Part shown: piece by piece, positions 21,318 through 64,000 of the stretch
Layout: each line of letters opens with the position of its first letter
Numbering within the stretch: the stretch's first letter is position 1
Source of the DNA: Flavobacteriales bacterium
GTDB taxonomy: Bacteria > Bacteroidota > Bacteroidia > Flavobacteriales_F > PHOS-HE28
NCBI GenBank assembly: GCA_016717305.1
Contig: JADKFY010000002.1
Coordinates: 346,351 to 410,350, forward strand
Length of the DNA: 64,000 nt
Direction of reading: 5' to 3'
Program-made: the position numbers and the translations under genes
Notes under the pieces: generated by a model
What the model saw: the letters and a program-made list of their open reading frames with translations, nothing else
Told to the model about the DNA's origin: nothing
Database searches by the model: none

Positions 21318-21383
21318 GGGGCGAAAGTAATTGTTCGTTGCAGTTGCGCTTGAGCAAGATCCATCCGGAAATAGACTCCCCCC

Positions 21384-34124: not shown

Positions 34125-35118
34125 TTCAGTAATTCGAGACGCTTTGCTTCAGCTTGGAACCGTACGGGATCGATCGGCACCACGCCGACTTCTTCACAGA
34201 CCAAGCCACCGGCCAAGTTCGCCAAGGCGGTCATTTGCTCGATCGGGAGTTGCTGCGCCAATGCCAATGTGGCCACGGCGATCACGGTATCTCCGGCACC
34301 GCTTACATCGGCGATCTTCCGATGATGGGCCGGCAGTAGGTGTTCTTCGGTAGCATTGTGGACGTAGGCCCCATGTTCACTCATGGTGACCATGGTAATG
34401 GCATTGTCGAGGGTCGACTCCAGCGCTTTTACGGCATTGCGCACACTTCCAAGGTCATCACCGGTCACTTCCAACTTCATGCCTTCTCGCAGTTCCTTCA
34501 AGTTCGGTTTGAAGAGATCCACTCCACGGTACGCCAGAAAATTTGCGGTCTTCGGATCTACGGCGACGGGTATCCCCGCCTGCTTCGCGAGATCGATCAC
34601 GGCTTTGATCGTGTTCGGGGTCAACACCCCTTTATTGTAGTCCTCGATCAAGATCGCGGCGGGTTTCCTGAAATCGATGGTCTCCTTCACCCGTTTGATG
34701 AAAGCGGCCTCGTCTTCCGCTGAAAGCGGGTGCGTATCCTCCTCATCAACGCGTACCACATGCTGATGCCCACTGATCACGCGGGTCTTTACCGTGGTGC
34801 GACGGTCCTTGCTCCGCAACAAGCCGACGCTGTCCAATTCCATTTCCAGGAAACGTTCGGCCATGGTTTCCGCGGAAGCATCCTTTCCGATCACGCTCAC
34901 GACCACAGGTATTGCACCCAATGCGCGCAGGTTCAAGGCCACATTGGCGGCACCGCCGAGCCGGGCATTCCGGTCCGTCACCTGCACGATGGGCACTGGC
35001 GCTTCGGGTGAAATACGTGCCACTTTTCCCAGAGGTAGGCATCCAACATCACATCACCGACCACCAGAACGGTGGTGCCTTTTGCACGTTGCAGGAAGGC
35101 GTCCAGGGCAGTGCTCAT
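34121..35118 (-). pseudogene. hldE: PfkB-family sugar kinase, HldE/RfaE domain-I-like (D-glycero-D-manno-heptose-7-P kinase type), interrupted by a single-base frameshift after codon ~31
   Basis: The N-terminus MSTALDAFLQRAKGTTVLVVGDVMLDAYLWEK (ATG at 35118, ATGA overlap with the aminotransferase stop) is in a different frame from the rest (ARISPEAPVPIVQV ... DVSGAGDTV, track ORF 34121..35023). One extra A in the A4/T4 run at 35024-35027 would give the contiguous consensus ...GDVMLDAYLWEKVARISPEAPVP. Confidence 0.7.
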
Positions 35119-36299: not shown

Positions 36300-36419
36300 G
36301 ACGGCGAACTTCTGGGTCGACCCGAACGGTCGTTCGGGGCGGCAAAACTACGAAGGCATGCGGGGAGGTCGTTCGTGTAACCGTTGGACTCCCGATATTC
36401 GTGCTCTTCTTCCACACAC

Positions 36420-38553: not shown

Positions 38554-41500
38554 TCACTCCTTCACGAAGCGTGCGCTGGAAAGCTGACCTCGCACGTCCT
38601 GAAGTTGGAACGTGTAGCTCCCAGCTCCCAAACGAGGTAGAGCGATCGACCTTTGGTTCAACCCATCGTCCATCAACAACGGACCTGAAATGGCGATACG
38701 ACCCGTATTGTCAAGGATCCTGTATTGCCCGGAACCTTCGCTCATGCCTTTGAATTCGAGCCCCAATTGCTCGCCGACCGGATTTGGCCGAATGGTGATC
38801 TTTCCAGCGGACGGGCCATGGAAAGCCGTTACCACCCTGGAGAATTCCTCTGAACCTTGGGCATCGATCAGTGCGATCCTGTAATGGTTGGTGCCGATCA
38901 GTGGGGTCGTGTCCATGAATTTATAGGCTTGGGTCCCCGATGTAATCACCGGCACTTCGATAACGCCGATCCCGGCAAAGGTTCGACCATCCGCCGATCG
39001 TTCAATGCGATAACTGCCGGTGTTGTGCGTGCCGGAAGTAAGCCAGTCCACCGAAATTCCCTGTTCCCCTGCGGTTGCGAATAGGTCCAACAGGTCCAGT
39101 GGGGTATAGATGCAATCGATCGAGGCGCCCCCCTGTGTATTCCAATTGAGGGTGAATCCATTGGTGGTGAGGTACCAGTTGTCCAAGAACAGGGTGTACC
39201 ATTGTCCGGGCAATACATCCAAATAGCGTGTCCATCCATCACCGAAAACGCCTTCGGAAATGTCGGTAGCAGTAAAATTCAGACCGGTCACGGCAGCACC
39301 ATCGGCCCACGAACAACGGATCGGCAAGCTATTGGGTGGGCAGGTAATACCACCGGTGTATGGACCCCAAACACCGTAGTCGTAATCGGTGTTGCCCGGT
39401 CCCACGCTGAATCCCAATTATCCGCCGAGATAGACGTAGAAGCTGTACCAGACCCCCCTACGTTCATTGGTGATCAAACAGCCCCGGTTGCTGAAGTTCA
39501 AGTCTTGGACATCACCGATGTTCAGGGGTGTTGCGCTTAGGGATGCATCGCCGCAAACTTGTTCCGCACCAAGGCAATCTTCTTGCGGAGCTGGAGGAAC
39601 GTTGCACAAATTGTCCACCACGAATAGAAAGAAGGGGGTGCTAGGAGGCGTTCCGCTATTCAGCAGCAGTCCACCGTTCTGTGCCCTCACGGTATACCCG
39701 ATCTGGTTCTGGAACCCACCCACCGGTGTATAGGTGATCTGGAAGATATCGGTCGGGTTCCCACCGAAAATTACACTGCCCACCGCACCTGTGATCGTGT
39801 AGTTCGTTACAATGGGTGGCCCGATCCCCAAGGGGAACCGATTGATGGTGACCGTCGATCCGTCCCAGCCATCACCGCCAAGGTCGGTCATGCGCAAGGT
39901 GTACGAACAAGCGCCCGGAGGTGGGTCTGTGCGGCTTGCACAGATCTGGAAGCTGCTCGCCACTGCGGTTCCTTGTCGCCAAACCCGGATATAGACCAGT
40001 TGGCCTGCGGGGGGTAGACCGGCAAGGATGGTCAACTTTGGCATGTCCGTGCCGTTCTGGCTCCCATTGGTGATGCATTGGCCGATCGCAGCCAAACTCA
40101 AGTTGCCACCACCGCAGGTACCGGAGACCACACGGTACACTTCCATGGCGGCATCGGTGAGCGCCCCATCATCAGTATCCAACACCAATTGGCCGTTGGG
40201 GGGCACCACGGCAGTGAACCAGACATCGTTGTTCGCGGCGCCTCCACAACTGGGGTTGGGTACATTGATCGTTCCTGCGGGGGGCGGGGCATTGACAGTG
40301 GTTGTGGCATTCCCCATTGTGGCGCTGTTGAGCGAACAGCCATATTGGACGGTAAGGGGTAACGCCCCGCATGGATCATCGTTAGGTGGTGGTGATGTGG
40401 GTTTGGCGCAGATGGTGAACGTACCGAAGACCGTGGTCTTGTTCCATACACGGACATAAATGACGGTGCCCTGTGGTACAGTAGGTGGGACCAAGGTGAT
40501 CGTGGGCAGCGCAGCACCGCCGGGATCACTGCATGCCACTTCTGTCAAGGTGCCATTGCATGTTCCGGTATACACGGCCATGGCGGCATCGGTCAAGTTG
40601 GCGCTGGGGATATTGATCACCGTACCCACGCTCGGGGTCATCGGAGTTACCGGTGTGGTGAGGGTGAACCACACATCGCGCAAGGGTGCCACGTTGCCAC
40701 ACGTTGGCACGGCAGGGAGGTATGTAGGCCCGGTAGATGGCGTTGCATTCTGCGTGGATGAATTGATCGTTGTACAAGCGGCATCCACGGTAATGGGAGT
40801 AGCGTTGCACGGTTCGTCGTTCACGGGCAAAACCGGGTTGTACGCACAGATCTCGAAAGATCCACCGTTCAGGATATTGCTCTCGGGCCAAACGCGGATA
40901 TAGATCACGTCCCCCGGCGTTAGCCCGGTCCGAAGAAGATAGGGTTGAAGACTTCCGGGAGCGATGTCATCGTTACAATCCAAAACGGTCCAATTGGAAG
41001 CTGGAAGGGCCGGTGCACTGCAAACGGGCGGTATGTACCAAGCCATGCCAATGTTGGTGGCCACGACCAAATTGGTCTCTACGGCCAAATTACCGCTAGG
41101 GGGCACCACGGCGGTAAACCACACGTCCGCATTGTTGGGGTAATTGCCGCAAGGTGGAGTTCCGATACCGGATGTCGCCGTTGCCCAGGTGGTGCCGGAG
41201 GTGATCATGCTGCATGAGTTCCCTACGTTAAGGACTATGGCGGTACACGGGTTGTCGTTCACCGGGGGCGGAGGTACGGGTGAGCAGGTGATCTGGATGG
41301 TTCCGCAAAGGGCTGTGTTGTTCGCACACGTAGGCGGTGGGCCTGAAATGCGGATGTTGTAGCTGGCATTTACCGACGGGTTGAACGTTACGGTGCTCAA
41401 TGGACCACCGCAGCCGTTATCATCCCATACATAGCCCGTGGTTGTACCATTGGAAATGGTCAAGTACGAATTCCAGGATGTATTCGTCGAACTACAAAGT

Positions 41501-41886
41501 GAAATGGTGTACACGTTCGATGCACACATGTAGATGGGGATCCGTTGGCCTTCGCAAACGGTGGTCGTGAACAATGTTGGGCAAGCGGCACACGCACCCG
41601 TTATGGACGCCGGTGGCCAATTCTGAACCCATGTATTCGGTGGAGAAGATACGAGTGGGTTCGGCCAACCGGTCGCATTGGCAGGAACGATGGTGGCGGC
41701 CGTATAACACTGGGCTCTTAATTCCCTGTTGCCCTGCAGTACCACAAAGCCCGCGATCAAGATCACAACCCATCGGTCCATGCTCCACTTTCCACTGCGC
41801 TTTTCACGCGTGCGGTGCAGCGTGCAGTTCTTCGGAGCCGTCCGTGTAACAGTGGGATTTTCGGGTGGTCCTTGTGGCATCGACAA
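38554..41886 (-). pseudogene. Giant modular T9SS cargo protein, paralog 1 (PPC-like beta-sandwich repeats, conserved C-terminal region, Ig-like domain, T9SS sorting domain), interrupted by an in-frame TAA at 39418-39420
   Basis: Track ORFs 39418..41886 and 38554..39417 are in the same frame, separated only by a TAA. Aligned with paralog 2, ...WYSFYVYLGG*LGFSVGPGNTDYDYGVWGPY matches ...AAAGNLAFTISPGGYADYDFAVWGPY, so the stop sits where the paralog has Asn. The downstream 'start' is a TTG in the track. Confidence 0.7.
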
Positions 41887-42021
41887 GCGAAGATAGCTGG
41901 ATCTTAACAGCTTGCAACTTATGTTGAAAACGTTCGATCGCCAGCCGGGTTGCCTTGTTGGGAAGCCACCGGCTCATCTCATACACGGAATGTCCAAAAA
42001 GAAGCATGCGGGTCCCGAAAA

Positions 42022-42060
42022 TGGAACGGGGCCGCCTCGTTTGAGACAGCCCCGTTCGAA
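42022..42060 (-). terminator. Putative terminator between paralog 2 and paralog 1
   Basis: Minus strand GAACGGGGC-(16 nt loop)-GCCCCGTTC followed by CATTTTC, directly after the paralog-2 stop (42077). Confidence 0.4.
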
Positions 42061-42076
42061 TTGCATTTGTTCTTTT

Positions 42077-45367: not shown

Positions 45368-45379
45368 GTTCGGTTGGTA

Positions 45380-45826: not shown

Positions 45827-46007
45827 GGTCGTATTGGAATTTAGAGTTGGCTTAAAGATAGTCGCTTTTTAACGTAAGAAGGCACCAATTTGTTCTTAAT
45901 GTGTTGATCCAACGTTCAAAACACGCATCCTATTTGGACGATAGACGGCATCATGGACCAAGGGTTGCCTAGGTGTTGAAAAGTGGGTCATTGGCAGACG
46001 AACCGGT

Positions 46008-48107
46008 CTATTGCCGTACGAACGGAACCCTTCCGACCACCTCTCCTTTCGCGTCCAGGACCTGCAGGAAATACGAGCCGGGTTCCAGCGTGGCCACAGG
46101 GAATTCCAACCTGATCTCGCCAACGTTGTTCACTTTCCTGAGCTCGTGGACCATGCGGCCACTGGCATCCATGGTACGCAGAGTGATCTGTCCTTGCAAA
46201 GGGGTGTCCAAGAAGAGCGTTGCCGAAGCTGTAACGGGGTTGGGCACCACCAGCAAACCGGTCTTGCCGGTAAGCAGGGCACTGGCCATAGGAGAGTATT
46301 GTTGGGTTCCTGAACGTCCAACGGCAAGGATCCGGTAGTAATTGATGCCCCCTTTTCGCCGTGTGGTCCTCCAGGGAGTAGTTCGTGGTAGAACTGGACT
46401 GGCCCACAGCGGGTAGTCGGCCGACATCCTCAAAGGATATTCCATCGGTGGATCGCTGTGCGATGAAGTGATCGCTTTCACGTTCGGTAGAGGTGGTCCA
46501 TTCAAGTACCACACGGTCCATCTTGGGCTTCGCTTTCAAGTTGATCTCCCCACGGAGAGAACGGTACAGTCCAAGGAAGCCCCACCGCCCAATTGCCAAG
46601 AGAGGTCGAACGCCTGTCCATTGGTTGAGAAATTATCAATGTACATGATGTAGATCTGCCCGGTAGTCGCGGTAATAGGAGCTACCCAGCGGTCGCCGAA
46701 TGCATCTTCGGAATTGTCCACTGACCCATTGCCTGCCCCGGTGCTGCCTGTGGGTGCCGCGTAGGAGCAGCGCAAAGGCGGACCGGGCGGTGGGCAACTT
46801 ACGGAGGCCATTGGTCCCCAAACGGCAAAATCGTAGTCCGTGGCCACAATCGGTGCTATAGTGAAGCCGATGCTGCCGCCGGCACTGGGTGAGAAGTAGT
46901 ACCATGTACCTTGCCGTTCACCGGCCAACAGACAGCCCGCGTTGGTGCCGTCCAGATCCACAACATTGCCGGTGTTGGCACTGTTGTTATTGAAGGACTG
47001 GCCCCCGCAAATGGTGGCCCCGCCAGCACAATCCTGCGGTGCAGCAGGCGGTGGTTGGCAATTGATGGTTTGTGTGAAGGAGATCCCCGCAGCGGGTGAG
47101 GTACCGGATTGGAAGAGTTGACCCCCGCCTCCGCTGATACTGAGGCTATACCGGTTCTCGTATTGGAAAGGACCGGAGTTGTTATAAGTAAGTACGATCA
47201 CCTGCCCAATATTGACCCCGATAAGCACTTGCCTTGAGTACCCGGTAACCGAATAATAGGTGAATGCTCCCCCGTTGATGCTGACCCCGACATTGGACGA
47301 ACCCCAACCATCGCCGAACGAATCGAAAAGGCTGAGCACGTAAACGCAATCGCCTGCTGGAGGAGGAACGGGCGGAGCACAGGAAATACTTGCCGTCCAA
47401 CCCGGGTAGGGGATGCTCCCATCCGAAGAAAAGCCCAGCGTTAAACAGCCACTGGGGTCGGTGGATGTAAAGGGTCCGGGACTACCGGTTCCACTGAAGG
47501 AACCCAAGGGAGGAGACCCGGCGTTGGGGCCATTGAATATCGTAACGATATCGAAGTTCGCTTCGGTACTGAATTGCGAAAAGGTCATGGTGACCACATC
47601 TCCGGGTGTTGAAGGGCAGTAGGTGGTGTACGTGGTGCTGTTGTTGGCATAGTTGCCAGCGGCGCCGCCGCTATCGTAAATGGTGGAGCCACATGCGGGC
47701 GGTGGCGGCACGAGCGGTGCGCACGAGATATTGATGGCCCAGCCGGCGTAGTTGATCGAAAGATCGGAGGTGAACCAGAGCGTTACACAGCCCCCTGCCA
47801 CGGTACCGGAAATGGCGGGTGGAAGTCCGGTTCCGTCGAACAGACCCAGCATTGGTGCCGCGTTGGTCGCACCATCATGAATGGAAAGTTGATCGTACCC
47901 AGCTTCCGTATTGAATGCGGTAAAGGTGAGCGTGACCACTTGGCCCGCGGGTGCGCAGTAGGTCCATGTATAGTTTTCGTTGGCCCCGTAATTGCCTCCT
48001 GCACCACCGGTATCATAAACGGTGGTACCGCATTGTGCCATCATGGAAACTTGTGCGGCGCAGCCGGCTAAGCAGCACAGAAGAAGGGTGCGTGCATAGT
48101 TATTCAT
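46008..48107 (-). pseudogene. Giant modular T9SS cargo protein, paralog 3 (two N-terminal CUB-like domains), C-terminus split by two single-base homopolymer frameshifts
   Basis: Track ORF 46536..48107 (523 aa) carries two CUB-like domains (CGTTVYDTGGAGGNYGANENYTWTYC ... ; CGSTIYDSGGAAGNYANNSTTYTTYC ...). It ends ...GGASLDCTVLSVGRST*. The Ig-like domain continues in a second frame (VLEWTTSTERESDHFIAQRSTDG..., ORF 45988..46599) and the T9SS sorting domain in a third (GINYYRIL ... LLVVPNPVTASATLF ... GSYFLQVLDAKGEVVGRVPFVRQ, ORF 46008..46514). One extra C in the C4 run at 46548-46551 and one fewer in the C5 run at 46348-46352 restore a single frame matching the paralogs. Confidence 0.7.
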
Positions 48108-48561
48108 AGGGCACAGGTTGAATGTTGCGTTGTGCCTGTCTTAGCGCATCGTGAGCTTCGGGGTTTTCCAAGCGCCACGCTTGTTTTGCTTGTACAAAAG
48201 CCGCTTCATCCGCATCGGGGTGGCCTGTATCCAAGTATTGAGGGAACGGGGATCCCACCTCCACTGTTCCTTGCTTTACGGACCGGTGGGAAGGGTCATG
48301 GGTGAAGGTACCCTGCTCCAACCTGTTCAACGTCTTTTCCGTTCGCGAAGGAAGGATACGGCTGTCCATACGAACCTTGAGTTGTGTCTCTTGGATGGAA
48401 ACCATCGCCTGTGGGTCCAAGGAAGCGATCGCTGCACGGACGAATTTCTCGGCTGGACGAATGTCCACCGAGCAATTGAACCGATGCACCACTGTTGCCC
48501 CCTGCGCAAAGGACAGGAATGGGATCAGTGACAAAATGAAGATAAAGTAGGGTCTCATCAT
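48100..48561 (-). CDS. Small secreted protein B (HMA-like fold + conserved C-terminal motif), overlapping the start of paralog 3 by 8 nt
   Basis: Signal peptide MMRPYFIFILSLIPFLSFAQG (internal Met of track ORF 48100..48597). C-terminal FPQYLDTGHPDADEAAFVQAKQAWRLENPEAHDAL. Confidence 0.6.
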   Translation of the reverse strand: MMRPYFIFILSLIPFLSFAQGATVVHRFNCSVDIRPAEKFVRAAIASLDPQAMVSIQETQLKVRMDSRILPSRTEKTLNRLEQGTFTHDPSHRSVKQGTVEVGSPFPQYLDTGHPDADEAAFVQAKQAWRLENPEAHDALRQAQRNIQPVPYE

Positions 48562-48597
48562 GCGAACTTGGATCGTTTCCCCCCGAAAAACATGCAC

Positions 48598-49171
48598 AAT
48601 ATAGGAAAATGTTGTTTCGTGCTTTCACGTTTCCGACCACAGTAGTTGAACGTATCGAGCGGCCCGAGTGAAAAGCGTCCTTCCATTGGAAAGACGCATG
48701 TGGTTCGAAAAGGTTGCCAGCAAGCGTCTTGGACGCGTTCGTGCACCATGCGCATTGGTGTAAACCTAAGATGCTCAGAAAGCCGGTTATCCCCAGCGCT
48801 TTTGAGCCTTGCAAGGGCAACATAGCACAGCGATGGGCCTTCGCCCATTGTTCCAGAATGACGCGACGTTTCCAAGCCCTGGAAGGGCGAAATAGCACGG
48901 ACCTCCTAGATCTATTGGAGCGTATTGGCGTGGAACTATTACGCCCCTGTAGGGCTCCAAAGAACATTGCCTGCGCAAAACGATGGGTTGATCCCGCAGT
49001 CCGATACGACTGGCTGCGGGACCATCGCTTAGCTATGCCGGCCTCTCAGGGCTGTCCTTCAGGTAGTAACCCGCTCTTAGGTATACGCCAATGTGTACAA
49101 TGCGGGAGCACCGGGACCAGTGCGGACGAGGAGCGGGGAACGGACAGTTCAACCCAAGGCCACCGTATCGG
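48598..49171. promoter_or_regulatory. 575-bp non-coding spacer between cassette units with repeated motifs and palindromes (probable promoter/regulatory region for unit B)
   Basis: Two copies of a 26-nt motif, gccttgcaagggcaacatagcacagcg (about 48801) and gccctggaagggcgaaatagcacggac (about 48876). Also a palindrome atgggccttcgcccat (about 48826) and an inverted repeat cccgcag ... ctgcggg (about 48985-49015). No convincing ORF. Confidence 0.3.
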
Positions 49172-51139: not shown

Positions 51140-51148
51140 CGCAGGGTC

Positions 51149-51652
51149 CTATGGTGTGTCGCAAGGCGCGCTCAATATCAATTGCTCGTACGCTTCGGGA
51201 TAGCGGTCGATCCAGCGTGACTTTTCCGTGTCATAGGTTGCGGCATCCTGATCGGGGTTGCCGGTGTCGGGGTAGACGGGAAAAGGTTCAGCGGCAGGTA
51301 GCGGTGCGGGCCCGTTGGCGGTATCGCGAAGGGTGATAAGGCGCATGCCGGCCACCTCCAATGCGGCACCCATTTGGCCATAGCTAAGCGGGTACGGTGG
51401 TGAGATGAGCAAGTGCGTGGGTTCGCGGAGGAATTCGATCTCCGATCCCGGGAAGGAATTCAAGAGGGCAGAGAGCACCGGCTTGGTAGCACGATCCATG
51501 TTGCCGGTCCCCAAGATCATTTCATACACGGGAGCACCGGTCCCTTGAGCTTGAACACTGCTGTACACGCCCATGGTCAAGACGAGGCACAAGACCTTTA
51601 CGGAACGCGCAACGTGCCAGTGGGATGGGGAGAAAGTGCACAAATGTGTCAT
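51149..51652 (-). CDS. Small secreted protein C (HMA-like fold + conserved C-terminal motif), 9 nt upstream of paralog 4
   Basis: Hydrophobic signal-like N-terminus (... VKVLCLVLTMGVYSSVQAQG). C-terminal FPVYPDTGNPDQDAATYDTEKSRWIDRYPEAYEQL. Confidence 0.6.
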   Translation of the reverse strand: MTHLCTFSPSHWHVARSVKVLCLVLTMGVYSSVQAQGTGAPVYEMILGTGNMDRATKPVLSALLNSFPGSEIEFLREPTHLLISPPYPLSYGQMGAALEVAGMRLITLRDTANGPAPLPAAEPFPVYPDTGNPDQDAATYDTEKSRWIDRYPEAYEQLILSAPCDTP

Positions 51653-51964
51653 CTTCAGTTGACCCTCATACGGTGGATATGGACAAGACGTTACATTTTG
51701 GCGATAGTTGCTTTATAATCAACGTTGGAACAACGAATTTCATCGACGGAGTAAATCTTGCCTCATGAAAGGTGCTCAAATTCACCACTTGGCCCTAATT
51801 TATTCGGGCAGAAATTGATGTATAACGTAGCAATGATGATATCCGAATGGAGGTCAAATGAATTCCGTCAAAAGAGGAATTTATGGCCAACCACGTGCCA
51901 TGAGCACGAAGGAGCACCGTGCCGCGTTGATAGCGCGGACCTAAACACTACGGTCTATTGGGGG

Positions 51965-53170
51965 TCAAGGTCGTTCCGCTACGCCGGAATACGCCTTTAA
52001 TGCTTCTTTGAGCACGACCACCGCCCGTTGCAGGAGGTCTTTTTCGAGCACGTAGGCCAATCGAACTTGTTTCTTGCCCGATTCGGGTTGGGCGTAGAAA
52101 CCGGTGGCAGGTGCCATCATTACGGTGTAGCCATCAAGTTGGAACGACTCCAGCAGCCATTGGCAGAAATAATCGCTATCCGCAATAGGAAGTTGGGCCA
52201 CACAATAAAATGCGCCGTTGGGTTTCGGGCATATCACTCCGGGTATACCGTTCAGTCCATTTACCAGGATATCGCGGCGTTGCACATACTCGGCGGTAAC
52301 TGCTTCGAAATAGCTTTTTGGCGTGTTGAGAGCCGCTTCCGAAGCGATCTGTCCGAAGGTCGGCGGGCTGAGGCGAGCTTGGGCGAACTTTAGCACGGCA
52401 TCGTACAATTCGGCGTTGCGAGTGATGAACGCGCCCACGCGCGCACCACACATGCTGTACCGTTTGCTCACGCTATCAATGAGCACCACTTGTTGGTCGA
52501 TGCCTTCCAGCGTCATGCAACTTATGTGCTTGGCTCCGTCATAACAGAACTCGCGGTACACTTCATCGGCAAAGAGAAAGAGGTCGTGCTCCTTCACGAT
52601 ATCGCGCAGTCGTTGGAGCTCCTCAGCACCGTAGATCCGGCCGGTTGGATTACCGGGGTTGCAGATCAGGATCCCTTTGGTGCGTGGGGTGATCAACGAC
52701 CGGAACGTGCTTATGGGGGGCAGTGCGAATCCGTCCTCAATGGTGGTGGGCAGCGGGACCACCTTCACACCTGCGGCCAATGCGAAACTGTTGTAATTGG
52801 CGTAGAACGGTTCGGGAATGATCAATTCATCGCCTGGTTCAAAACACGCCATCATACCGAACAAGAGCGCCTCACTACCGCCGTTGGTGATGATGATCTG
52901 TTCGTGGTTGATATGGATGTCGTGCTCGGCGTAATAGGAAACCAGCCCCTTTCGGTAGCTCTCGTAGCCTGCCGAGTGGCTGTATTCGATCACGGTGCGG
53001 TCCAGGTTGCGGATCGCATTGAGCGCAACCTCGGGCGAGGCGATATCCGGTTGACCGATGTTGAGGTGGATGACCTTGGTGCCTCTAAGTTTTGCCGCCT
53101 CTGCGAAGGGAACGAGCTTGCGTATCGGCGAGGCGGGCATTAAGCGCCCTTTGGTGGAAATGGATGGCAT
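51965..53170 (-). CDS. PLP-dependent aminotransferase class I/II
   Basis: Full-length fold-type-I aminotransferase with the canonical NPxNPTG region (ICNPGNPTG), a Lys-bearing SVSKRYSMCGARVG motif and a C-terminal domain. Confidence 0.85.
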   Translation of the reverse strand: MPSISTKGRLMPASPIRKLVPFAEAAKLRGTKVIHLNIGQPDIASPEVALNAIRNLDRTVIEYSHSAGYESYRKGLVSYYAEHDIHINHEQIIITNGGSEALLFGMMACFEPGDELIIPEPFYANYNSFALAAGVKVVPLPTTIEDGFALPPISTFRSLITPRTKGILICNPGNPTGRIYGAEELQRLRDIVKEHDLFLFADEVYREFCYDGAKHISCMTLEGIDQQVVLIDSVSKRYSMCGARVGAFITRNAELYDAVLKFAQARLSPPTFGQIASEAALNTPKSYFEAVTAEYVQRRDILVNGLNGIPGVICPKPNGAFYCVAQLPIADSDYFCQWLLESFQLDGYTVMMAPATGFYAQPESGKKQVRLAYVLEKDLLQRAVVVLKEALKAYSGVAERP

Positions 53171-53204
53171 GAGCTGTAAATGGGCGACGAAGATCGTGGT
53201 TATA

Positions 53205-53280
53205 AGGGAATGCTTCGACTTCGCTCAGCACAAGTGAGAAGAATGCTTCGGCTTCGCTCAGCACAAGTGAATAAATGAAT
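53205..53280. repeat. Tandem direct repeat, 2 x about 33 bp, in the intergenic region
   Basis: gaatgcttcgacttcgctcagcacaagtgagaa / gaatgcttcggcttcgctcagcacaagtgaataa, about 2 mismatches. Confidence 0.5.
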
Positions 53281-53469
53281 GTGTTCCGGGTCCCGGCTTG
53301 GTGGCCGGGATGACGGGATGACGGGAATGAATGGAGTTCAGGAATACTTCGTTGCTCTGCCCGGTTCAGTTGCGGAGATTGCCAGTACATATGTGGAAAT
53401 GCAAACTAGCCCAACGAAAAAGGCCCTTCCACCGAACGGGGAAGGGCCTTTTCACAAGGAATTGACCGA

Positions 53470-53940
53470 TCAGTTCTTTTCAACAGGGGCCATTGGGCTG
53501 GCCTCTTTTACTGGTGATGTCGGTGTTGTAGGGGCAGTTTCAACCGTGCCTTTGATGCGGATCACTTTTTCGGGCGTGTTCACGGCGTTGCTGGAAACCG
53601 TCACGCTCTTGTTGATCGGGCCGGGACGCTTGGTGTCGTACTTCACGGTGATGGTGGTCTTGGCGCCGGGCAGGATCGGTTCGGTATCGCACTTGGGCAC
53701 TGTACAGCCGCAACTGCCTTTGCAATTTGTCAGGATCAGCGGTGCATCGCCGGTGTTCGTCACCGTGAATTCGCAAGTGCCGTTCGCACCTTGTGCAATG
53801 TCACCATAGTCATGCACCTCCTTGTCGAAGGAGATCTTGGGGCCTGGGCCATTTGGATCGGGGGCTGTGGCTGGAGCGTCTTGGGCGTTTGCCGCGAACA
53901 TGGAAAAGGCAAGGCCGAGGGTAAGTAGGAACTTGTTCAT
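53470..53940 (-). CDS. DUF1573-domain secreted protein
   Basis: Signal peptide; HDYGDIAQGANGTCEFTVTNTGDAPLILTNCKGSCGCTVPKCDTEPILPGAKTTITVKYD is the characteristic DUF1573 core; Pro/Thr-rich tail. Confidence 0.75.
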   Translation of the reverse strand: MNKFLLTLGLAFSMFAANAQDAPATAPDPNGPGPKISFDKEVHDYGDIAQGANGTCEFTVTNTGDAPLILTNCKGSCGCTVPKCDTEPILPGAKTTITVKYDTKRPGPINKSVTVSSNAVNTPEKVIRIKGTVETAPTTPTSPVKEASPMAPVEKN

Positions 53941-54003
53941 GGTCTTCGTTCTTCAGAATTGGTTGTTCGTGAAAATGCAGTTATCGTGCCAAAGCGGCAA
54001 GGA

Positions 54004-54468
54004 TCAATGAGGCACTGCGGTTGGGGCCATTGGTGCGGCGGGCTTTACCGGGGAGGTAGGCGAAGAAGCCGGAGCTTCGATCATTCCTTTGATGGTGATC
54101 ACCTTGCTGGGCGCATTGGTGGCATTGCTGGTGATCGTTACGCTCTTGGCGATAGCACCAAGGCGTGAAGAATCATACTTCACCTTGATGATGCTCGTTG
54201 CTCCGGGTTTGATGGGGGCGGTTTCGCATTGGGGCACGGTGCAACCGCAACTGCCTTGGCACTGTGAAATGATCAAGGGTTGATCGCCGGTATTGGTCAC
54301 CACGAATTCGCATTCGCCATTACCGCCTTGCGTGATGGTGCCGTAGTCATGCACTTCCTTGTTCAAGGACAACATCGGTCCGGTTCCGCCAACTGGTTTC
54401 ATTTCAGGCTGGGCCATGGCCGCAAAGGAAAGGAAGCTGAGGCCAAGGGTAAGGATCACGTTTTTCAT
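54004..54468 (-). CDS. DUF1573-domain secreted protein (paralog)
   Basis: HDYGTITQGGNGECEFVVTNTGDQPLIISQCQGSCGCTVPQCETAPIKPGATSIIKVKYD; start at the internal Met MKNVILTLGLSF of track ORF 54004..54531. Confidence 0.75.
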   Translation of the reverse strand: MKNVILTLGLSFLSFAAMAQPEMKPVGGTGPMLSLNKEVHDYGTITQGGNGECEFVVTNTGDQPLIISQCQGSCGCTVPQCETAPIKPGATSIIKVKYDSSRLGAIAKSVTITSNATNAPSKVITIKGMIEAPASSPTSPVKPAAPMAPTAVPH

Positions 54469-54769
54469 GCGGTGATAAGGTTGTTTCAAGTTTGTACGAC
54501 GAAAGTAGAGAGGTCGGTTCCGCGCCATCAAGACCTTAACAGGACATTAACAGGTGGCCGACCGCCCTTCTCCCAGGGGGAGGCCCTCCCGGCAGTTGCA
54601 GTGGTCTGGTACCAACAGCTGGGTCCTTGGCGTCTTTGCGGTACGATGCTGGAATGAACGGTTCACCGGGCGGGCATTCAACTTCCGCTGTTTTGACCTT
54701 GGGACGGAGTGAAGCCTTCGGTTACTTTTGCGATCCGCCGAAAACCGGTGGTCATGGAAGCGAAGGAAG

Positions 54770-57422
54770 ATGGAAAGCAAGGAGATCCCCAAACGATTCG
54801 AGCCGGGCACGAGTGAAGCGAAGTGGTACGCGCACTGGATGCAGAAAGGCTACTTCCGCAGTGTGCCCGATGAGCGTGAGCCATACACGATCGTGATCCC
54901 GCCGCCCAATGTGACGGGTGTGCTGCACATGGGCCACATGCTAAACAACACCATCCAGGACGTGTTGGTGCGCCGTGCGCGTATGCAGGGAAAGAACGCA
55001 TGTTGGGTACCGGGCACGGACCATGCATCCATCGCCACGGAAGCCAAGGTGGTTCGTTTGTTGGGTGAACAAGGCATCAAGAAAAGTGTGATCGGTCGCG
55101 AGAAATTCTTGGAACATGCTTTTGCTTGGAAAGAGAAATACGGCGGTGTGATCCTGGAGCAGTTGAAGAAGTTGGGCGCCAGTTGCGACTGGGAGCGCAC
55201 GCGCTTCACCATGGAGCCTGACCTGAGCGAGGCGGTGATCGATGTGTTCATCGACCTGCACAAGAAAGGGTTGGTGTACCGTGGCCTGCGCATGGTGAAC
55301 TGGGATCCAGTTGCGTTGACGGCGGTGAGCGATGAAGAGGTGATCCACAAGGAGGTGAACTCGAAGTTGTACTACGTTCGGTACAAGGTCGAAGGCGCCG
55401 CAGAAGGAGTGGGTGACCATTGCTACAACGCGTCCGGAAACGATCTTAGGTGATACAGCGGTGGCGGTGCATCCGGAAGATGAACGTTATGCGCACTTGA
55501 AAGGGAAGCGCGTGTTGGTGCCCTTGTTGGATCGAAGCATCCCGATCATTTTCGATGAGTACGTGGAGCGTGAATTCGGTACCGGTGCGTTGAAGGTGAC
55601 TCCTGCACATGACGTGAATGACCAAGAGTTGGGCAAGAAGCACAAGTTGGAAACCATCGACATTCTGGAGCCGAACGGAACCTTGAGCGCAGCGGCACAA
55701 CTGTACGTTGGGGAGGACCGCTTCATCGTTCGCAAGAAGATCGTAAAGGAGCTGGAGGAGAAGGGCTTTCTGGTGAAGACGGAAGACATCAAGAACAAGG
55801 TGGGTTATAGTGAGCGCACCGATGCCGTGATCGAGCCGCGCTTGAGCTTGCAGTGGTTCGTGAAGATGAGCGAGTTGGCAAAACCGGCGTTGGACGTGGT
55901 GATGGACGGCACAGTGAAATTGCATCCGCAGAAATTCGCGAACACCTATCGCCATTGGATGGAGAACGTGCGCGATTGGTGCATCAGTCGCCAGTTGTGG
56001 TGGGGTCAACGGATCCCTGCGTGGTACAACTCGAAGGGTGATGTAGCCGTGTGCAAGACCGAGGCCGAAGCGATCACTTACTTCACTTCGAATGGACTTT
56101 CAACAGAAGGGCTGAGACAGGACGAGGATGTCATGGACACCTGGTTCAGCAGCTGGTTGTGGCCGATCAGTGTGTTCGATGGATTCAAGGATCCGAACAA
56201 TGCGGACATCAAGTACTACTACCCAACGAACGACCTTGTTACGGCACCGGAGATCCTCTTCTTCTGGGTGGCACGCATGATCATGGCGGGCAAAGAATAC
56301 CGTAACGAAGTGCCGTTCAAGAACGTGTACCTCACAGGCATCGTACGCGACAAGATCGGTCGCAAGATGAGCAAGAGCTTGGGCAATAGTCCGGACCCCT
56401 TGGAGTTGATCGAGAAGTTCGGTGCGGATGGTGTGCGCGTGGGCATGCTGCTTACATCACCTGCGGGAAATGATCTGCCGTACGACGATTCGTTGTGCGA
56501 ACAAGGACGCAACTTCAGCAACAAGATCTGGAATGCATTCCGACTCGTGAAGGGCTGGAGCGTTGATGACCGCGAGCAACCGGCGAGCAGTGCCATTGCA
56601 GTTGAATGGTTGCAAAGCAGGGTGGAACGCGCCACCACAGAGATCGATGGCTTGTTCGCGCAATTCCGGATCAGCGAAGCCTTGATGGCGACGTACAAAC
56701 TGATCTGGGACGATCTGTGCAGTTGGTATTTGGAGAGCGTGAAGACCGGCTTCGTGAAGAATGCTGAGGGCGAAGGTGTTCCTGAACCGATCGATCGCAA
56801 GACCTACGAAGCGACGGTCGCGATCTTTGGATCCGTGATGAAATTGCTCCATCCGTTCATGCCCTTCCTGAGTGAGGAGCTGTGGCATTTGCTGAGCGAG
56901 CGTAAGGAAGGTGACGATATCATCGTAGCCAGTTGGCCGAAGGGTGGTGAAGGCGATCCGCAATTGGAGAGCGAGATGCAACATGCGTTCGAGCTGGTCA
57001 CAGCAGTGCGCAATGTGCGCAATGAACGCGGCATGAGCCCGAAGACCGCGATCGAAGTGCAGGCCATGGGCACTGCTGCTATGCGAGAAGCCGCGGTCGA
57101 TGTTGCGAAGAAATTGGCGAACATCAGCGAAGTGCAAAACGTGGCGCAGGCCAAGTCCGGTTCGGTCGTGTTCCTAGTGGGCACTACGGAATATGGCGTT
57201 GACCTTGGTGGGAACATGGACACGGTGGCCGAGGTGAAGAAAGCCGAAGCTGAACTGGGCCATTTGCGCAACTTCCTATCCAGTGTGGACAAGAAGCTGA
57301 GCAACGAGCGCTTCGTGGCCGGTGCACCACCGCAGGTATTGGAGACCGAGCGCAAGAAGAAGAGCGACGCAGAGTCGAAGATCAAGGCATTGGAAGAACG
57401 GATCGGGCAGTTGGCGGGATAG
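54770..57422 (+). CDS. valS: Valyl-tRNA synthetase, open reading frame broken by a +1 frameshift near 55404-55413
   Basis: Track ORFs 54728..55453 (HIGH motif [14 protein letters not shown]) and 55413..57422 ([22 protein letters not shown] ... KMSKSLGN ... C-terminal coiled coil) together form one collinear ValRS. The junction ...[13 protein letters not shown] / VTIATTRPE shifts by one base in a GG/GGG context. Start at the internal Met ([12 protein letters not shown]). Confidence 0.85.
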
Positions 57423-57431
57423 ACTTTCCAC

Positions 57432-58955
57432 CTACGGCATGAACATCGGCGCACCCGGTCCGATGGGCAGTTCCAACAATACCCAAATGATCAGGAGCAA
57501 GCTCCAGCCGATCAGGAATACGACGGAGTAGGGGAGCATGGTGCTGATCACTGTACCGATCCCCGCTTTCTTGTCGTAACGTGCAATGAAGGCCACGATC
57601 AACGCGAAATAGCTCATCATCGGGCTGATGATGTTCGTGACGCTATCGCCAACGCGGTACGCCATCTGGGTGAATTCCGGTGAGTAGCCGAGGAGCATGA
57701 ACATGGGAATGAAGACCGGCCCCATGATCGCCCATTTTGCGGAGGCGCTGCCCATCACCATGTTGATCGTGGCGCTCACGAGCACGAAGCTCAGCATCAA
57801 GGGGATCGGTCCGAGGTCGGCGGCTTTCAGCACATCGGCACCTTTGATGGCGAGGATCAGTCCGAGGTTGGTCCAATTGAAGTAGGCAACGAACTGCGCG
57901 GCAAAGAACACGAGAACGATGTAACTGCCGAGCGTCTCCATGCTCTTGGCCATACCACCCATCACATCGCTGTCGTTCTTGAAGGTCTTGGCACCGATGC
58001 CATAAGCGATACCAGCGATCGCGGCGCTCACGAAGATCAAGGCGACGATCCCGCTCATGAATGGTGAGTGTAGCACCTCGTGTGTTTTCGGGTCGCGCAG
58101 GAAGCCCTCCGAAGGCAATAGTCCGGCAAGGATCACTGCCGTGAAAAGCAATGCAGCGACCAGTGCCCATTTCATGCCGCGCTTTTCCGCTGCGGTCGCG
58201 TTCCGCAGTTCCTCGGGTTTCTCATCGCCGGTGTATTCACCCAAGCGCGGAATGACGACACGCTCTGTTACCCACGTGCCGAGTCCCGCGATCACGAAGG
58301 TGCTCACGAACATGAAGTAGTAGTTGCATGCCGGATTCACCAAGTAGGTTGGGTCTATGATGCGTGCAGCCTCTTGGCTCAATCCGGCCAGAAGGGGGTC
58401 GATCGTGCCCAGCAGCAGGTTTGCGCTGTAGCCGCCGCTCACTCCAGCAAATGCAGCGGCGAGTCCTGCTAGCGGATGACGACCTGCGGCCAGGAAGATC
58501 ACAGCCGCTAATGGAACGAGAAGCACGTATCCGACCTCGCTGGCGGTATTGCTCATCACACCGGCAAAGACGATCACGAAAGTGAGCAGCTTCTTCGGTG
58601 AAGCCATTACAAGCGCGCGCATCACGGCGCCGATCAAGCCACTGCCTTCGGCGATCCCGATGCCGAGCATGGCTACGAGCACGGTGCCCAGCGGTGCGAA
58701 TGCTGTGAAATTCACCACCATCTTCGTAAGGATCATGTGGAGGCCTTCCACCGAAAGCAGGTTGAACGGCGTGATCGTTTCGCCGGTACCGGGGTGCAGC
58801 GCCGAGAACCCGGTCAGGCTGAACAAGCCGCTGAGCAACACCACGATGAATGCCAATAGCGCGAAGAGCGTTGCCGGGTGCGGCAAGGCGTTGCCCGCTT
58901 TCTCGATGATGGAAAGGAAGCGATCGACGCCACTGCGCTTGACTGTTTCGGCCAT
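57432..58955 (-). CDS. AbgT-family transporter (p-aminobenzoyl-glutamate / MtrF-type)
   Basis: 507 aa, about 12 TM segments; the N-terminus, overall length and hydropathy match the AbgT family. Confidence 0.8.
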
Positions 58956-59260
58956 GTGTTCCGAGTTGGGTGAAAGGCAAAGAAAGGAAAGTCGATCACA
59001 TCACTCTTCCTCCACTAAATGGACCAATGGATCACAGCTCCACGAATTGCTCTCGGACGAATTTCCGTTGTTCAAGGAGGTAACGATGAAATAGGAACCC
59101 GATCGCAAGAAGTATCGAGATCGCATCCACCGTTCGATCAACAGTGATCCCCTAGCTGATCCAACAACGGATCCGCTACCATAACGGAATGTCGAGAGGA
59201 GCTTGCTGGACGTTCAATTTCCGTGCTGAACTCATCCACGAACACACTTGGGGTCGAAAC

Positions 59261-61626
59261 CTACGGCAACTGCTGCAACACCACATTGGACGCAATGGAC
59301 CCACCGATATTCACCAATATCGGATCACGGTCATTGTTGATCCCGGTGTACTTAACGATTCCATCCATATTCACATCATCGCGGTAATAGCCAGTTGTGG
59401 TGTTTGATGCGATCGCTCCACCGATCCGTACGAGGATCAGGTCGCGATCATTGTTGATGCCGGTATACTTTAAGTTTCCATCGCCACGGCAATCGCCAGC
59501 CCAGAGTACCCGGCGCGTGCCAATAGTGGCTTGCGCATTGGTCCCATACGTTGTTGTTGTGGTCAAGCTGAAGTCGACCACGGTGGTCGTCGTGCTCAAT
59601 GCTCTGGATGTATTGGTCATTACCCCCAAGTGGTTGCGGTGACGAATAGCAACGCGATAGTTCCCTGCGGGTCTATTGAAGAGCACGGGGCCTGTGCCGG
59701 AGGCTGCCACTACATCGCCATCGCGTTGCACCAAAGCACTTTTGGTTGCTACTACAGCGTACGGCGATGTTGTGTTGCGCAATTCAACCACCACCCAATC
59801 CACGATCGCGTTGTTGCCGGTAACGGCGAGTGCTGCTGCGGTTGTTGTTTCGCCACCACCGCCATTCACGTAGGTGTAGCCGAGCGCGGTATAGGGCTCG
59901 GTGAAGGCAGGGTGTCGGTGATCACCACGTTGAAGGCCGTATCCGTACCGGTGTTCTGGAAGCGGATGGTGTAGTCGACCCACTCGTCCTCCTCCAAGGT
60001 CCAGCTGCTGGAACTTCCAGAAGAGGTGGTGGCGAGCTTGTCGTTGGGGTCGTAGGCACCGGTAACGATGCGCGTTACGCTTGCGCTGTTGTTGCCCAGG
60101 TCCACATCGGTGTTGGCGCTCGATACGGTCGCCGTAGCGATCAGCTCAGTCCCCAGCAGGCCCACATCCGGCGGCACTTGGAAACGCACGTTGATGGTGC
60201 GCTGTTGGAAGGCGTTCATCAGGCTGAATGCGGGGGCTGTCCAGGTAAGGGTGTTGCCCGCGATGCATGAGGGTGCGGGAATGGCGCTGAGGAAGCTGAT
60301 CAAGGGGTCGACCGTCATGGAGAGGGTGATGGTGCCCGTGGCCGCAGGCGAAAGGTTGGTGAGCGGTCATCGATTGGGCCATCTGGAATCCGGGCCGTGC
60401 CGCACCGGCGCCCATGAGCAAGCGCAGGTCGAGCGGATCGCCGGGAGCGCAGCCCACGTTGCGCGTCATGGGCGTGCCATTGCTCACCGTGGTCGTAACG
60501 GTGCAACTCTGCTCCAGCACGGGATGCTGCTCGGTGAAGGTGTAGTTGCCGAAGGGAAGCGCGATGCTGAATTGCCCGCTGGAATTGGTGTTGGTGTAGT
60601 ACGGGCCCGGCGTGACCTGGATGACCGTGTTCGGCACATTGTTCTCTCCACCGTTGTACGAGCAGTTGCCGTTGCCATCCACGTAAAGCCGACCGTTCAC
60701 CAGTCCGCAGGTGGCGCCGATGTCCTCGATCACCACCTGCACGGAATCGCGGCAAGGGGGCTGCGTTCCGTACATGGTGAACTCATCGGTGCTGACCATG
60801 GCGTAGTAGGTGCCCGGTGCCAGGTTGTTGAAGGTGATCACACTGGGCGTTTCGCTGGCCGTGAAATACGTGTTGCAGGGGGAGCCAACGAAGGTGCCAT
60901 CGGCATTCTTCAACTTGATCGGTAATCCGCTGTTCATGGGTGCGGCACCAACGGAAATGATCGCGCTACCGATCGAGGAATTGGTGCATGAACCCGTGGT
61001 GGAGAGCACCTGCAGTTCAGGAAGGTCCACCAAGGGTGGCAGGTAGATGTCGAAAGTTCCGGGGCAGCCACTGCCGTCGGTGTAGTTCACAGTGACGTTT
61101 TGCTGGGGTGCTGCACCAACGATGGTGACATCGTAGTACGAGTAGTACGTGCAGGCATCGGGCAGCTCCTGCCAGGTAGCGGCATAGCCCACCGGCTCGA
61201 AGGTGTACGGTCCTGGACCGTGCTGAGTGGCGGTCCCGGGTGGCGGAGGCATGCCGTTCTCTGTACCGGCGAAGAAGATCGCACGCGAGTAGGTTCCGGT
61301 GCAAGAATAGCCGGGCACCACTGTGGAATAGGGGTAGCTGTTCACGTTCTCGATCGTGCCCGACCCGGTAGCCTGCTCCCCCATGGCATCGGTTACCGTG
61401 ACCTGGTACGTCCCTGCCGCCAATCCAGCAAGTTGTGGCGTGTTCTCGCCCGTGCTCCACATGTAGCTGTACGGCCCAGTGCCTCCGCTCGCATAGGCGT
61501 ACATTATGCCCAGGGGCTGACCGCAAATGGCGAATCCGTTCACTAGCCATCCACTGTAAGGGCCATCAACAGGCAACCATGGAAGGCCAGCAGGAAGGTG
61601 GATGTGAGCCGCAGGTGTTTCATCAT
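59261..61626 (-). pseudogene. SprB-repeat / SdrD-B-like / DUF11-domain cell-surface protein with C-terminal dockerin-like repeats, fragmented over at least 4 reading frames
   Basis: Signal peptide MMKHLRLTSTFLLAFHGCLLMA (ORF 61543..61812). A SprB repeat (CGQPLGIMYAYASGGTGPYSYMWSTGENTPQLAGLAAGTYQVTVTDAMG) and SdrD-B-like motifs (LVNGRLYVDGNGNCSYNGGE ...) follow in ORF 60146..61576. DUF11 conserved-repeat pieces (ITLSMTVDPLISFLSAIPAPSCIAGNTLTWTAPAF ... YDPNDK ... WVDYTIRFQNTGTDTAFNVVITDTLP) sit in ORF 59866..60318. Dockerin-like repeats (GDCRGDGNLKYTGINNDRDLILVRIGG, DVNMDGIVKYTGINNDRDPILVNIGG) sit in ORF 59261..59983. One junction (about 60352-60362) is a 1-nt indel in a CC/GG context. Confidence 0.6.
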
Positions 61627-63786
61627 AGTTCGGTCTTGGTGAAGGGCATGGTGAAGGTCGGGATCATCGAACACGCGTAAAAAGTAAAGTCCGGTGACAA
61701 GTTCGCTCCGTATCGAAGGGCTTTCATCCATGGCTCTGGTGCCCTCATCAAGCAAGCGGCCATCACTGGAAAGATAGCCCACGAACAAGGGCTGGTGATC
61801 GGTGTGATCCACCGGATGAACAGTTGGTCGTTTGCCGGGTTGGGGTACGCTGGGTGGGATTGCATTATGAGCCTGGATGCCGTACTGAACTCCGCCACGA
61901 GCACGCTTGGCTCGGTGATCATGGTGGGTTGAAGTCGAAGTAGATCGGGCTGTATTCGTGATCTCGGCACCGGGTAGGAGACCGCTGCGTGGTTTTCATT
62001 CGGAAAGCGATGAAGCCTTGACTCCCCAGCAGGTCGGTCGTGCTGTCGGGTAGCAGGATGTCGGCGAAGGTGAACACCAGTTCGCGGCCGTCGCCAAAGG
62101 AAGGTACAAAGGCATGCGAAGCGGCGAGGATCTCCAGGCTTTGGATGTCGAGGTCCGCTTCGAGCTCATCCCGGATCACAACGGTGAAAGCGGTATCCGT
62201 ACCCGTGTTCTGGAACCGCACAACGTAGTCGATCCAGGTGTCGACATCAAGGAAGAACTGTTCGTTGCTGCCGGTCACGTCGGTGGTGCCGTGCTTGTCG
62301 TTGGGGTCGTAGCTTCCAGTGACGGTCCGTGTCAGTACCTTGGTGTTGTTTGCCACCGAAGTTTCGCTGCTGGAGTTCGTGGCAATGGCTGTGATCATCA
62401 ACTCTTCACCCAGGAGACCGATATCCGGTGGCAAGGTCCCGCTGATCCGAAAGCCTGCAACGAGAAGGCGGATACAACTGGGAAGTTCCACAGTCCATTT
62501 CCTCCGGTTGCCGTACCGCCATCAGAGGTGGAAACAGGATCCAGCAGAGCAGGGTAGTTCAACGATAGCGAAATCGTCCCACTTGGATACGCAGTATTGT
62601 TGCGCACCGAGCCCCCAGATGGTGAACGGGAAACCGGGCCGGAACGCGGTGGTGTGAGAGCAGCACTTCCACATCATGCGGGACGAAGCTGCTATCGGCA
62701 AGGTCGATGGTGAGTGACGGGGTTCCACCGTTCACCGTGAAAGGCACGGGCGCCAAAATTGGGCAGAGCTGTGCTTCATCCACCAATGGCTGCGCCAAGG
62801 TGTACAATCCGAAGGGCATGCCGATGAAGTAGTCGCCCTGCGCATCGGTCATGCCGTAACGCGGCCCGGGTTGCACTGTGAGGATGCGATAAGGAAGTCC
62901 CGGTTCGTCGGTATCCTGGACACAATCCTGATCGGCATCGTTGAAGATGGTCCCGGAAACGCCCCCGCATGGTGCTGCTATCTCGGGGACGTTGAAACCT
63001 CCTGCGGGATTGGTGCAATAGGGTTGCCCATCCCATCCGTTCACCCAGGAAGAGATCGTGTAATCCCCAGCTGCAAGGCCGGTGATCGCATAAGGTGTGT
63101 TCAGCGGTGGGTAGAACAACTGCTCGTTCTGCGTCGAAAAGCTGTACAGCCGCACGTAAACTAAGCCCTGCCTCCCAGCAGGGTCACGTTCATGGTGCGT
63201 TCGCTTGACCTTCGCAGGATCCCGTGATGGCGTTCACCTGCACAACGCTATTCTCCACGTTACTGACAATACTTCCCAGATCCACCTCGCCAGGGCATCC
63301 GTTGAGGTCCGCGATGGTGATCACGTTCGGAGTACTTGAACAGACCCATTCGTAACCGAAGTGGGAGGGGAACGACTGTGGCGCTTCACTATATATGTAA
63401 GGGGGTGTTCCGCTCAGTGAACTCTCGAAGACATCCACCAGCCCCATACAATTGAAAGAGCAATCCGGTTGGTACTCCATGAAGCTGCCTTCGATCGCCA
63501 GTTCGAACAGGGCCACTACGGTGGCTGAACCGTTGGCGACCCCTCCGATCGCATCCGTGACGGTCACGTCATAAGTTCCAGGCGCAAGACCGCCGATCGT
63601 TTGTGTGGTCGCTCCGGTACTCCACGAATAAGTATATGGGGGAATACCATTGGCCGGCATGGCACGGGCGCTTCCATTGTTCAAGCCGCATCGAGCGGGG
63701 AACGCTTGCATGGTAACGGTAACGCTGTGGCCAAGTGCAGCGAAAAGCAAGGCGATCAGTAAAGTGATGGATCTTGCGTGTGTCAT
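61623..63786 (-). pseudogene. SprB-repeat / SdrD-B-like / DUF11-domain T9SS cargo protein, fragmented over at least 4 reading frames
   Basis: Signal peptide MTHARSITLLIALLFAALGHS. A SprB repeat (CGLNNGSARAMPANGIPPYTYSWSTGATTQTIGGLAPGTYDVTVTDAIGG) lies in ORF 63190..63810. An SdrD-B-like segment (VSGTIFNDADQDCVQDTDEPGLPYRILTVQPGPRYGMTDAQGDYFIGMPFGLYTL) lies in ORF 62559..63155. A DUF11 segment (YDPNDKHGTTDVTGSNEQFFLDVDTWIDYVVRFQNTGTDTAFTVVIRDEL ...) lies in ORF 61919..62491. A T9SS sorting domain is split between ORF 61623..61970 (HPAYPNPANDQLFIRW) and ORF 61543..61812 (... LVTGLYFLRVFDD). The frame carrying the garbled last residues (...FTKTEL*, ORF 61623..61970) stops with TGA at 61623-61625, overlapping the ATG (61626-61624) of the next gene's MMKHLRL signal peptide (ATGA). 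Confidence 0.6.
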
Positions 63787-63796
63787 CAGTGTGGAT

Positions 63797-64000
63797 CTAA
63801 TGGCGTTCAATGATCAATGGAAGTCGTGTGGCGCCTCCGTTGCGTAAGGTCAATTCAACGAGATAGGCACCACTGGGAATACCGCTGAGCATGAATCGAC
63901 GTTCGCCATTGGCGTTCGAGAAGGATCGAACGGTTCGTCCATCGATGGACAACAGGGTCACGCGCGACGGATCCTGGCTCAGCCCACGGATCTCAAATGC
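63797..64000 (-). CDS. C-terminal end (T9SS sorting domain) of a further secreted protein whose body lies beyond the window
   Basis: Reverse-strand translation ...FEIRGLSQDPSRVTLLSIDGRTVRSFSNANGERRFMLSGIPSGAYLVELTLRNGGATRLPLIIERH* (stop TAG at 63797-63799) has T9SS sorting-domain character. Confidence 0.6.
   Translation of the reverse strand, partial: AFEIRGLSQDPSRVTLLSIDGRTVRSFSNANGERRFMLSGIPSGAYLVELTLRNGGATRLPLIIERH

Follow-up and report, generated by a model that had tools for sequence, protein, structure and literature searches.

The window analysed here, a 64,000-nucleotide stretch of a single Flavobacteriales contig, carries on its plus strand two overlapping open reading frames (ORFs) that lie one base apart, 54728..55453 in frame 2 and 55413..57422 in frame 0. 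The NCBIfam model for valine--tRNA ligase (PRK05729, 860 positions) matches the first ORF over positions 2-202 and the second over positions 207-859, and the two are therefore consecutive pieces of one valyl-tRNA synthetase (ValRS) that jointly cover positions 2-859 of the model. Taken alone, the downstream ORF passes the model cut-off (776 versus 704 bits) and the N-terminal ORF falls below it (318 bits). A database search with the fused protein returned P0001, an 883-aa protein annotated as 'valine--tRNA ligase' in the Flavobacteriales MAG GCA_017995035.1, at 99% identity, and the contig that encodes it aligns with window positions 44741-59391 at 98.5-99.6% identity. Searching the window with P0001 by tblastn gave one valS locus, in which residues 1-212 lie in frame 2 and residues 212-883 in frame 3. 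The 5' part of the gene (54770..55405) encodes residues 1-212 at 99.5% identity to P0001; these form the first half of the Rossmann fold and run as far as VEGAAE, the variable loop that precedes CP1. The 3' part (55408..57422), at 99.3% identity, encodes the CP1 editing domain, the remaining half of the catalytic core, the anticodon-binding domain and the C-terminal coiled coil. The first-pass annotation had proposed that valS is split into these two ORFs by a shift of one nucleotide, and the ORFs, the PRK05729 matches and the tblastn alignment all confirm it.

The lesion itself is a single additional G at 55406/55407, which turns GAAGAG into GAAGGAG (relatives GCAGAAGAGTGG, window GCAGAAGGAGTGG) in the variable loop directly before the CP1 editing domain. 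It is the sole length difference in valS between the window and the P0001 contig. A GG/GGG context had been described for the break at 55400-55416; the GG is indeed the extra G, whereas the GGG of TGGGTG is unchanged. With one G deleted, an open 883-aa ORF is obtained that differs from P0001 at five amino acids (99.4% identity). The repaired protein thus resembles an annotated bacterial ValRS (PRK05729 / TIGR00422) very closely, but the gene as written has no uninterrupted reading frame, as the extra G shifts it. Intact proteins of the window have the NCBI accessions MBK9762572.1 to MBK9762600.1, with names of the form 'MAG: ... [Flavobacteriales bacterium]'. No protein accession was assigned to valS, and the accessions of its neighbours are consecutive (MBK9762599 for a DUF1573 protein and MBK9762600 for an AbgT transporter), from which it follows that the depositor's annotation had no valS protein call.

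For comparison, we recovered about 40 contig loci using neighbouring proteins as handles, some of which are views of the same record. These comprise contigs with megahit- or SPAdes-style names as well as JGI and NCBI MAG contigs, and their sources are several wastewater and activated-sludge metagenomes. Contigs of at least 96% identity covered window positions 11458-32335, 33408-37622 and 39172-62266, about 48 kb in total. ValS is intact in every contig that carries it (at least 15 recovered) and encodes either 883 aa or 892 aa, and the extra G is missing from 13 of 13 independent short-read contigs that are at least 96% identical across the site. A 30-mer spanning the frameshifted valS had no match in JGI metagenome contigs, a search of low power given that a 29-mer of the intact allele matched only once. 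Among the matches listed in a scan of genome contigs, relatives reach 82% identity.

The comparator contigs fall into two haplotypes, A (seven contigs, 883-aa ValRS) and B (eight contigs, 892-aa ValRS), the latter distinguished by a 27-nt insertion in the same ValRS loop. Each haplotype is uniform within valS, and alternation between them occurs in the window alone. At 215 sites in valS that are diagnostic of A or B, the window carries the A base at 162, the B base at 53 and a private base at none, with 11 switches between the haplotypes in 2.46 kb. Since there are no private bases at the 215 sites, the extra G is the only lesion in valS and would, if real, be extremely recent. Over the 5' part of the gene, the window matches haplotype A contigs letter for letter, save in a short B-type tract at 54859-54904. 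The extra G falls where A gives way to B, within the switch interval 55404-55424, which is also where the 27-nt length polymorphism has its 3' edge; here haplotype A reads GAAG-AGTGG, haplotype B GAAGACGAGTGG and the window GAAGGAGTGG. The region of a kinase gene further upstream in the window shows 18 switches in 1.47 kb, and a one-base deletion in that gene sits in a switch interval of its own (35024-35038). Switch intervals take up 10% of valS and 22% of the kinase region, and the joint chance that both frameshifts fall inside them is about 0.02. A mosaic of the window type was not found in any short-read contig compared.

Substitutions outside the diagnostic set point in the same direction. 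Relative to the contigs of at least 96% identity, the window carries 234 'private' substitutions that are tightly clustered and mostly at codon third positions, and these clusters are consistent with short tracts from another haplotype. The consensus of the window thus appears to be chimeric on a fine scale, with sequence from two or more coexisting populations, as in a strain-collapsed assembly. Such a consensus would resemble the window in its alternation, every 80-250 bp, between two haplotypes that coexist in the same samples and that independent short-read assemblies each recover cleanly, in the two frameshifts placed in switch intervals, one of them at a length polymorphism, and in the lack of private bases at diagnostic sites, with the caveat that genuine recombination between coexisting strains could yield a similar mosaic.

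Overall, about six of the roughly 41 genes in the window are disrupted. The kinase gene, on the minus strand, is intact at 332 aa in relatives and has a one-base deletion at 35028..35031 (C4 to C3 on the plus strand, G4 to G3 in the gene) that is absent from 5 of 5 contigs and cuts the first 31 codons from the rest. The model TIGR02198 matches the upstream 31-aa piece over positions 3-23 and the remaining 300-aa ORF over positions 27-307, the latter scoring below the cut-off (276 versus 345 bits). The product would be a PfkB-family kinase resembling rfaE domain I, for which the label 'hldE-like' seems fair. The first-pass annotation was right that this gene is disrupted, but had placed the break at a T4 run (35024-35027); the deletion is in the adjoining C run. 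A gene for a CUB-domain T9SS protein (46008..48107, minus strand), intact at 678-699 aa in relatives, bears two homopolymer indels 195 nt apart (46353..46548), T3 to T4 at 46353 and C5 to C4 at 46548, compared with 9 of 9 contigs. This gene, earlier listed as a giant paralog broken at C4/C5 runs, does carry the C5 to C4 change, and the T3 to T4 change is a further lesion. We also considered whether haplotype junctions explain all of the indels, and rejected this: the single-nucleotide polymorphisms flanking both CUB-gene indels are all of the main haplotype, so that these indels lie in an unbroken stretch of it and are plain homopolymer changes.

The densest damage was found in tandem genes for CLIPPER(DUF11)/DUF7619/SprB-repeat surface proteins (59261..63813, minus strand), where the multiple shifts reported earlier for the SprB locus were borne out. 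One CLIPPER/DUF7619 gene, whose 911-aa ortholog is intact at four comparator loci (L096, L098, L099 and L101), is missing a unique 373-nt segment at 59904|59905 and changes frame near 60365 and 61548. In a patch of 450 bp at 61548-61996 there are 11 or more indels of one or two bases; the patch extends across the junction with the upstream paralog, which is itself scattered over three frames. At 39418-39420, a gene for a 1108-aa T9SS protein has TAA in place of CAA, a nonsense substitution (relative to one comparator). Outside genes, private insertions occur at 21383 (C5 to C6 adjoining an A9 run, compared with 10 of 11 contigs) and at 24817 (G to GG, CCAG-T to CCAGGT, compared with 8 of 8 contigs of at least 96% identity and a haplotype group at about 91%). 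The 24817 insertion matches the valS lesion in kind. Further frameshifts were considered in four pairs of overlapping ORFs (a TonB receptor and a 187-aa gene, PFK and a BNR protein, MeaB and its neighbour, and PurK and an OMP gene), and were rejected on the basis of Pfam coverage and the gene lengths of relatives, by which all of these genes are intact.

The contig thus bears, besides the patch, six isolated private one-base indels. A check for homopolymer enrichment of the disruptions had been suggested, and run within the window it gave a positive result: four of the six lie in runs of at least 3 bases (13% of the sequence; p = 0.004), and three in runs of at least 4 bases (3.7%; p = 0.001). 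Homopolymer enrichment by itself leaves error and biology undivided, because genuine mutations favour homopolymers too. The lesions are absent from all independent short-read contigs that cover them (13/13 for valS, 5/5 for the kinase and 9/9 for the CUB gene), which supports the earlier advice that all pseudogene calls in the window be treated as provisional.

We infer strongly, from comparison of sequences rather than read mapping and short of proof, that the valS frameshift arose as a consensus error of one base in a MAG of mixed strains and is not biology (probability of about 0.92); the organism itself almost certainly encodes a single intact ValRS of 883 aa. The first-pass annotation had attributed the disruptions to uncorrected homopolymer indels of a MAG or long-read assembly. 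Assembly or consensus error is retained, but the valS lesion, G1 to G2, is not a classic homopolymer miscall, and because it falls exactly at a haplotype switch and at the edge of a length polymorphism, strain-mixed consensus building or polishing is the better mechanism for this site. In the proposed sequence of events, reads from two or more closely related, co-occurring populations would have gone into building or polishing the consensus of a long-read-style contig, and this consensus would accordingly flip between haplotypes A and B every 50-700 bp. At the 27-nt loop, the sole A/B length difference in valS, it would have moved from A to B while retaining one surplus base, and this surplus G may be what remains of the extra 'ACG' of B-type reads after it was taken up only in part. 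Ordinary homopolymer-length errors and one unpolished-looking patch occur in other parts of the window.

The sequencing platform, the pipeline and the exact origin of the extra base are our inferences. Judged from the 439-kb contig, the error signature and the accession-number neighbourhood, and not from the record, a combined Nanopore and Illumina-Racon pipeline may be the source. Indels in unpolished Nanopore consensus sequences give frameshifted, fragmented gene calls (PMC9262707), and a widely used pipeline for activated-sludge MAGs combines CANU, Racon and medaka with a single Illumina Racon round run with --include-unpolished (PMC8012365). A pipeline of this design would leave unpolished windows and would mix strains in polishing. 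Residual long-read indels (Nanopore R9.4.1-type) resemble what we observed in that the private one-base indels of the window are homopolymer-enriched, conserved genes are split into adjacent ORFs, a dense and mostly deletion patch lies in a repeated gene region, and the contig, at 439,258 bp, is very long for a complex wastewater community. Unlike such residual indels, the valS lesion adds a base to a 'run' of one and coincides with a haplotype switch, and the platform is itself presumed.

ValRS is essential and normally single-copy in bacteria. This bears on the reading that the frameshift is real and very recent, with valS inactivated and the strain surviving through a second valS copy or representing a dead-end variant. 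The lesion is present in the sequence as given, and strains of this species do differ by genuine intergenic indels, but we consider a real inactivating mutation very unlikely: the window has only one valS locus, valS is intact in 13 of 13 related contigs, and at none of the 215 diagnostic sites does the window carry a third base. Five other genes within 64 kb, including a conserved kinase, are disrupted as well, and with the indel-dense patch (11 or more in 450 bp) such damage is unlike genuine pseudogenes in free-living Flavobacteriales. A real insertion could instead leave ValRS functional as a 227-aa N-terminal and a 669-aa C-terminal piece that assemble non-covalently, with translation restarting at a GTG at 55413. 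Class I synthetases can withstand being cut within CP1 or close to it, and precedents for the non-covalent assembly proposed here are the two-subunit LeuRS of Aquifex and class I synthetases split by engineering; the chain is broken in a variable surface loop that leads into the CP1 insertion, and the extra G yields a perfect Shine-Dalgarno (SD) hexamer, AAGGAG, followed by TGG, 3 nt before the in-frame GTG. If true, this would be a naturally split class Ia synthetase caught at birth. That spacing, however, is too short. Of 23 verified gene starts in the window, all are ATG and only 3 have an SD-like motif ahead of them, so that the organism does not appear to rely on SD-led initiation. Initiation without such reliance is typical of Bacteroidota. 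Neither a functional downstream start nor a conserved split was found, no relative being split, and the same contig bears many other error-like indels, which together make a naturally split ValRS extremely unlikely.

The hexamer also bears on programmed +1 ribosomal frameshifting of the prfB type, in which AAGGAG would act as an internal stimulator and full-length ValRS would be made from the shifted gene. A +1 shift is the direction required and the SD-like motif is at the site. In contrast to prfB, the window has no slippery P-site codon able to re-pair in the +1 frame (GCA GAA GGA GTG GGT GAC). Neither a stop nor any other evident signal for pausing stands at this point, and in the 0 frame a stop is first reached 13 codons downstream; a shift-prone codon followed by a slow or stop codon was thus not found. 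Nor are the signals conserved: 15 relatives, including some at 98-99.6% identity, keep the reading frame, and both the sequence and the length of the loop are hypervariable. To our knowledge, no aminoacyl-tRNA synthetase uses programmed +1 frameshifting. As slippery and pause signals are absent and the site is not conserved among relatives, we rejected this explanation, which retains almost no probability.

Read as a consensus error, the valS break is not a biological feature, and its value lies in what it says about data quality. About 15% of the genes in the window look like pseudogenes only through consensus errors, and inference of gene loss or pseudogenes from this MAG would mislead. Analyses at the level of single-nucleotide polymorphisms, or of recombination or selection, would be misleading as well, because the consensus is apparently a fine-scale chimera of two or more coexisting populations. 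Frameshifts at haplotype switches beside length polymorphisms are a useful signature by which to flag this class of error in other long-read MAGs.

The damage is uneven along the window and concentrated in 35-63 kb. The assembly is not uniformly poor, and within the first 32 kb (1-32 kb) we found no coding frameshift; ORFs of 1307+ and 1718 codons are open there, and PFK, PurK, PNPase, RpoD, S15 and others are full length.

By comparing the window with related contigs, we found that, from 11458 to 62266 and wherever comparators exist, haplotypes that occur together alternate along its consensus as a fine-scale mosaic. In valS, the valyl-tRNA synthetase (ValRS) gene, the haplotype switches 11 times in 2.46 kb; in the region of the frame-disrupted PfkB-like kinase gene it does so 18 times in 1.47 kb. 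Comparison with contigs of at least 96% identity left 234 clustered 'private' substitutions in the window. Any analysis of SNPs, recombination or selection that uses this MAG would be compromised. A contig of the sister MAG (GCA_017995035.1, JAGOJQ010000030.1; loci L081, L112 and L116) has identities to the window of 91.7%, 97.7% and 99.6% in successive blocks, and therefore different populations have been joined along one contig in this short-read MAG, in the window, or in both. Two intergenic stretches (53317-53377 and 54559-54685) carry clusters of small indels and substitutions relative to all 9-10 close contigs; these may be tracts of a third haplotype rather than errors.

The coexisting populations are also separated by a 27-nt (9-codon) insertion, ...LTPNPSPKERED..., which gives ValRS proteins of 883 versus 892 aa (window 55398-55410; comparator loci L082-L085, L098, L100 and L102). 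The insertion site is a surface loop directly before the CP1 editing domain, and since further loop lengths occur there in more distant relatives, this loop is a hotspot of length variation.

Most of the disrupted genes in the window belong to a repetitive class whose products are very large, secreted and equipped with T9SS sorting domains, encoded in series at 38554-51139 and 59261-63813 (domains: GBD_T9SS_assoc, Por_Secre_tail, CUB, CLIPPER/DUF11, DUF7619 and SprB repeats), and such genes are the hardest targets for short-read polishing. Where two tandem paralogous surface-protein genes meet, at least 11 indels of one or two bases, chiefly deletions in short runs, fall within 450 bp (61548-61996). 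Indels this small and this dense suggest that short-read polishing missed this stretch of the consensus. Within the 911-aa CLIPPER(DUF11)/DUF7619 gene, a unique 373-nt segment present in four independent contigs, its length not a multiple of three, is missing from the window at 59904|59905. No direct repeat was found flanking this gap, and the segment could have been lost either by a genuine deletion or through mis-assembly. An in-frame TAA on the minus strand (39418-39420) cuts a giant T9SS-type protein of 1108 aa into 38554..39417 and 39418..41886, where L116, the sole covering comparator, has CAA; as a substitution without any indel, this stop lies outside the homopolymer-error pattern.

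All 23 gene starts in the window that were verified by orthologs use ATG, and only three of these 23 have an upstream Shine-Dalgarno-like tetramer. This pattern is consistent with Shine-Dalgarno-independent initiation, which is typical of Bacteroidota.
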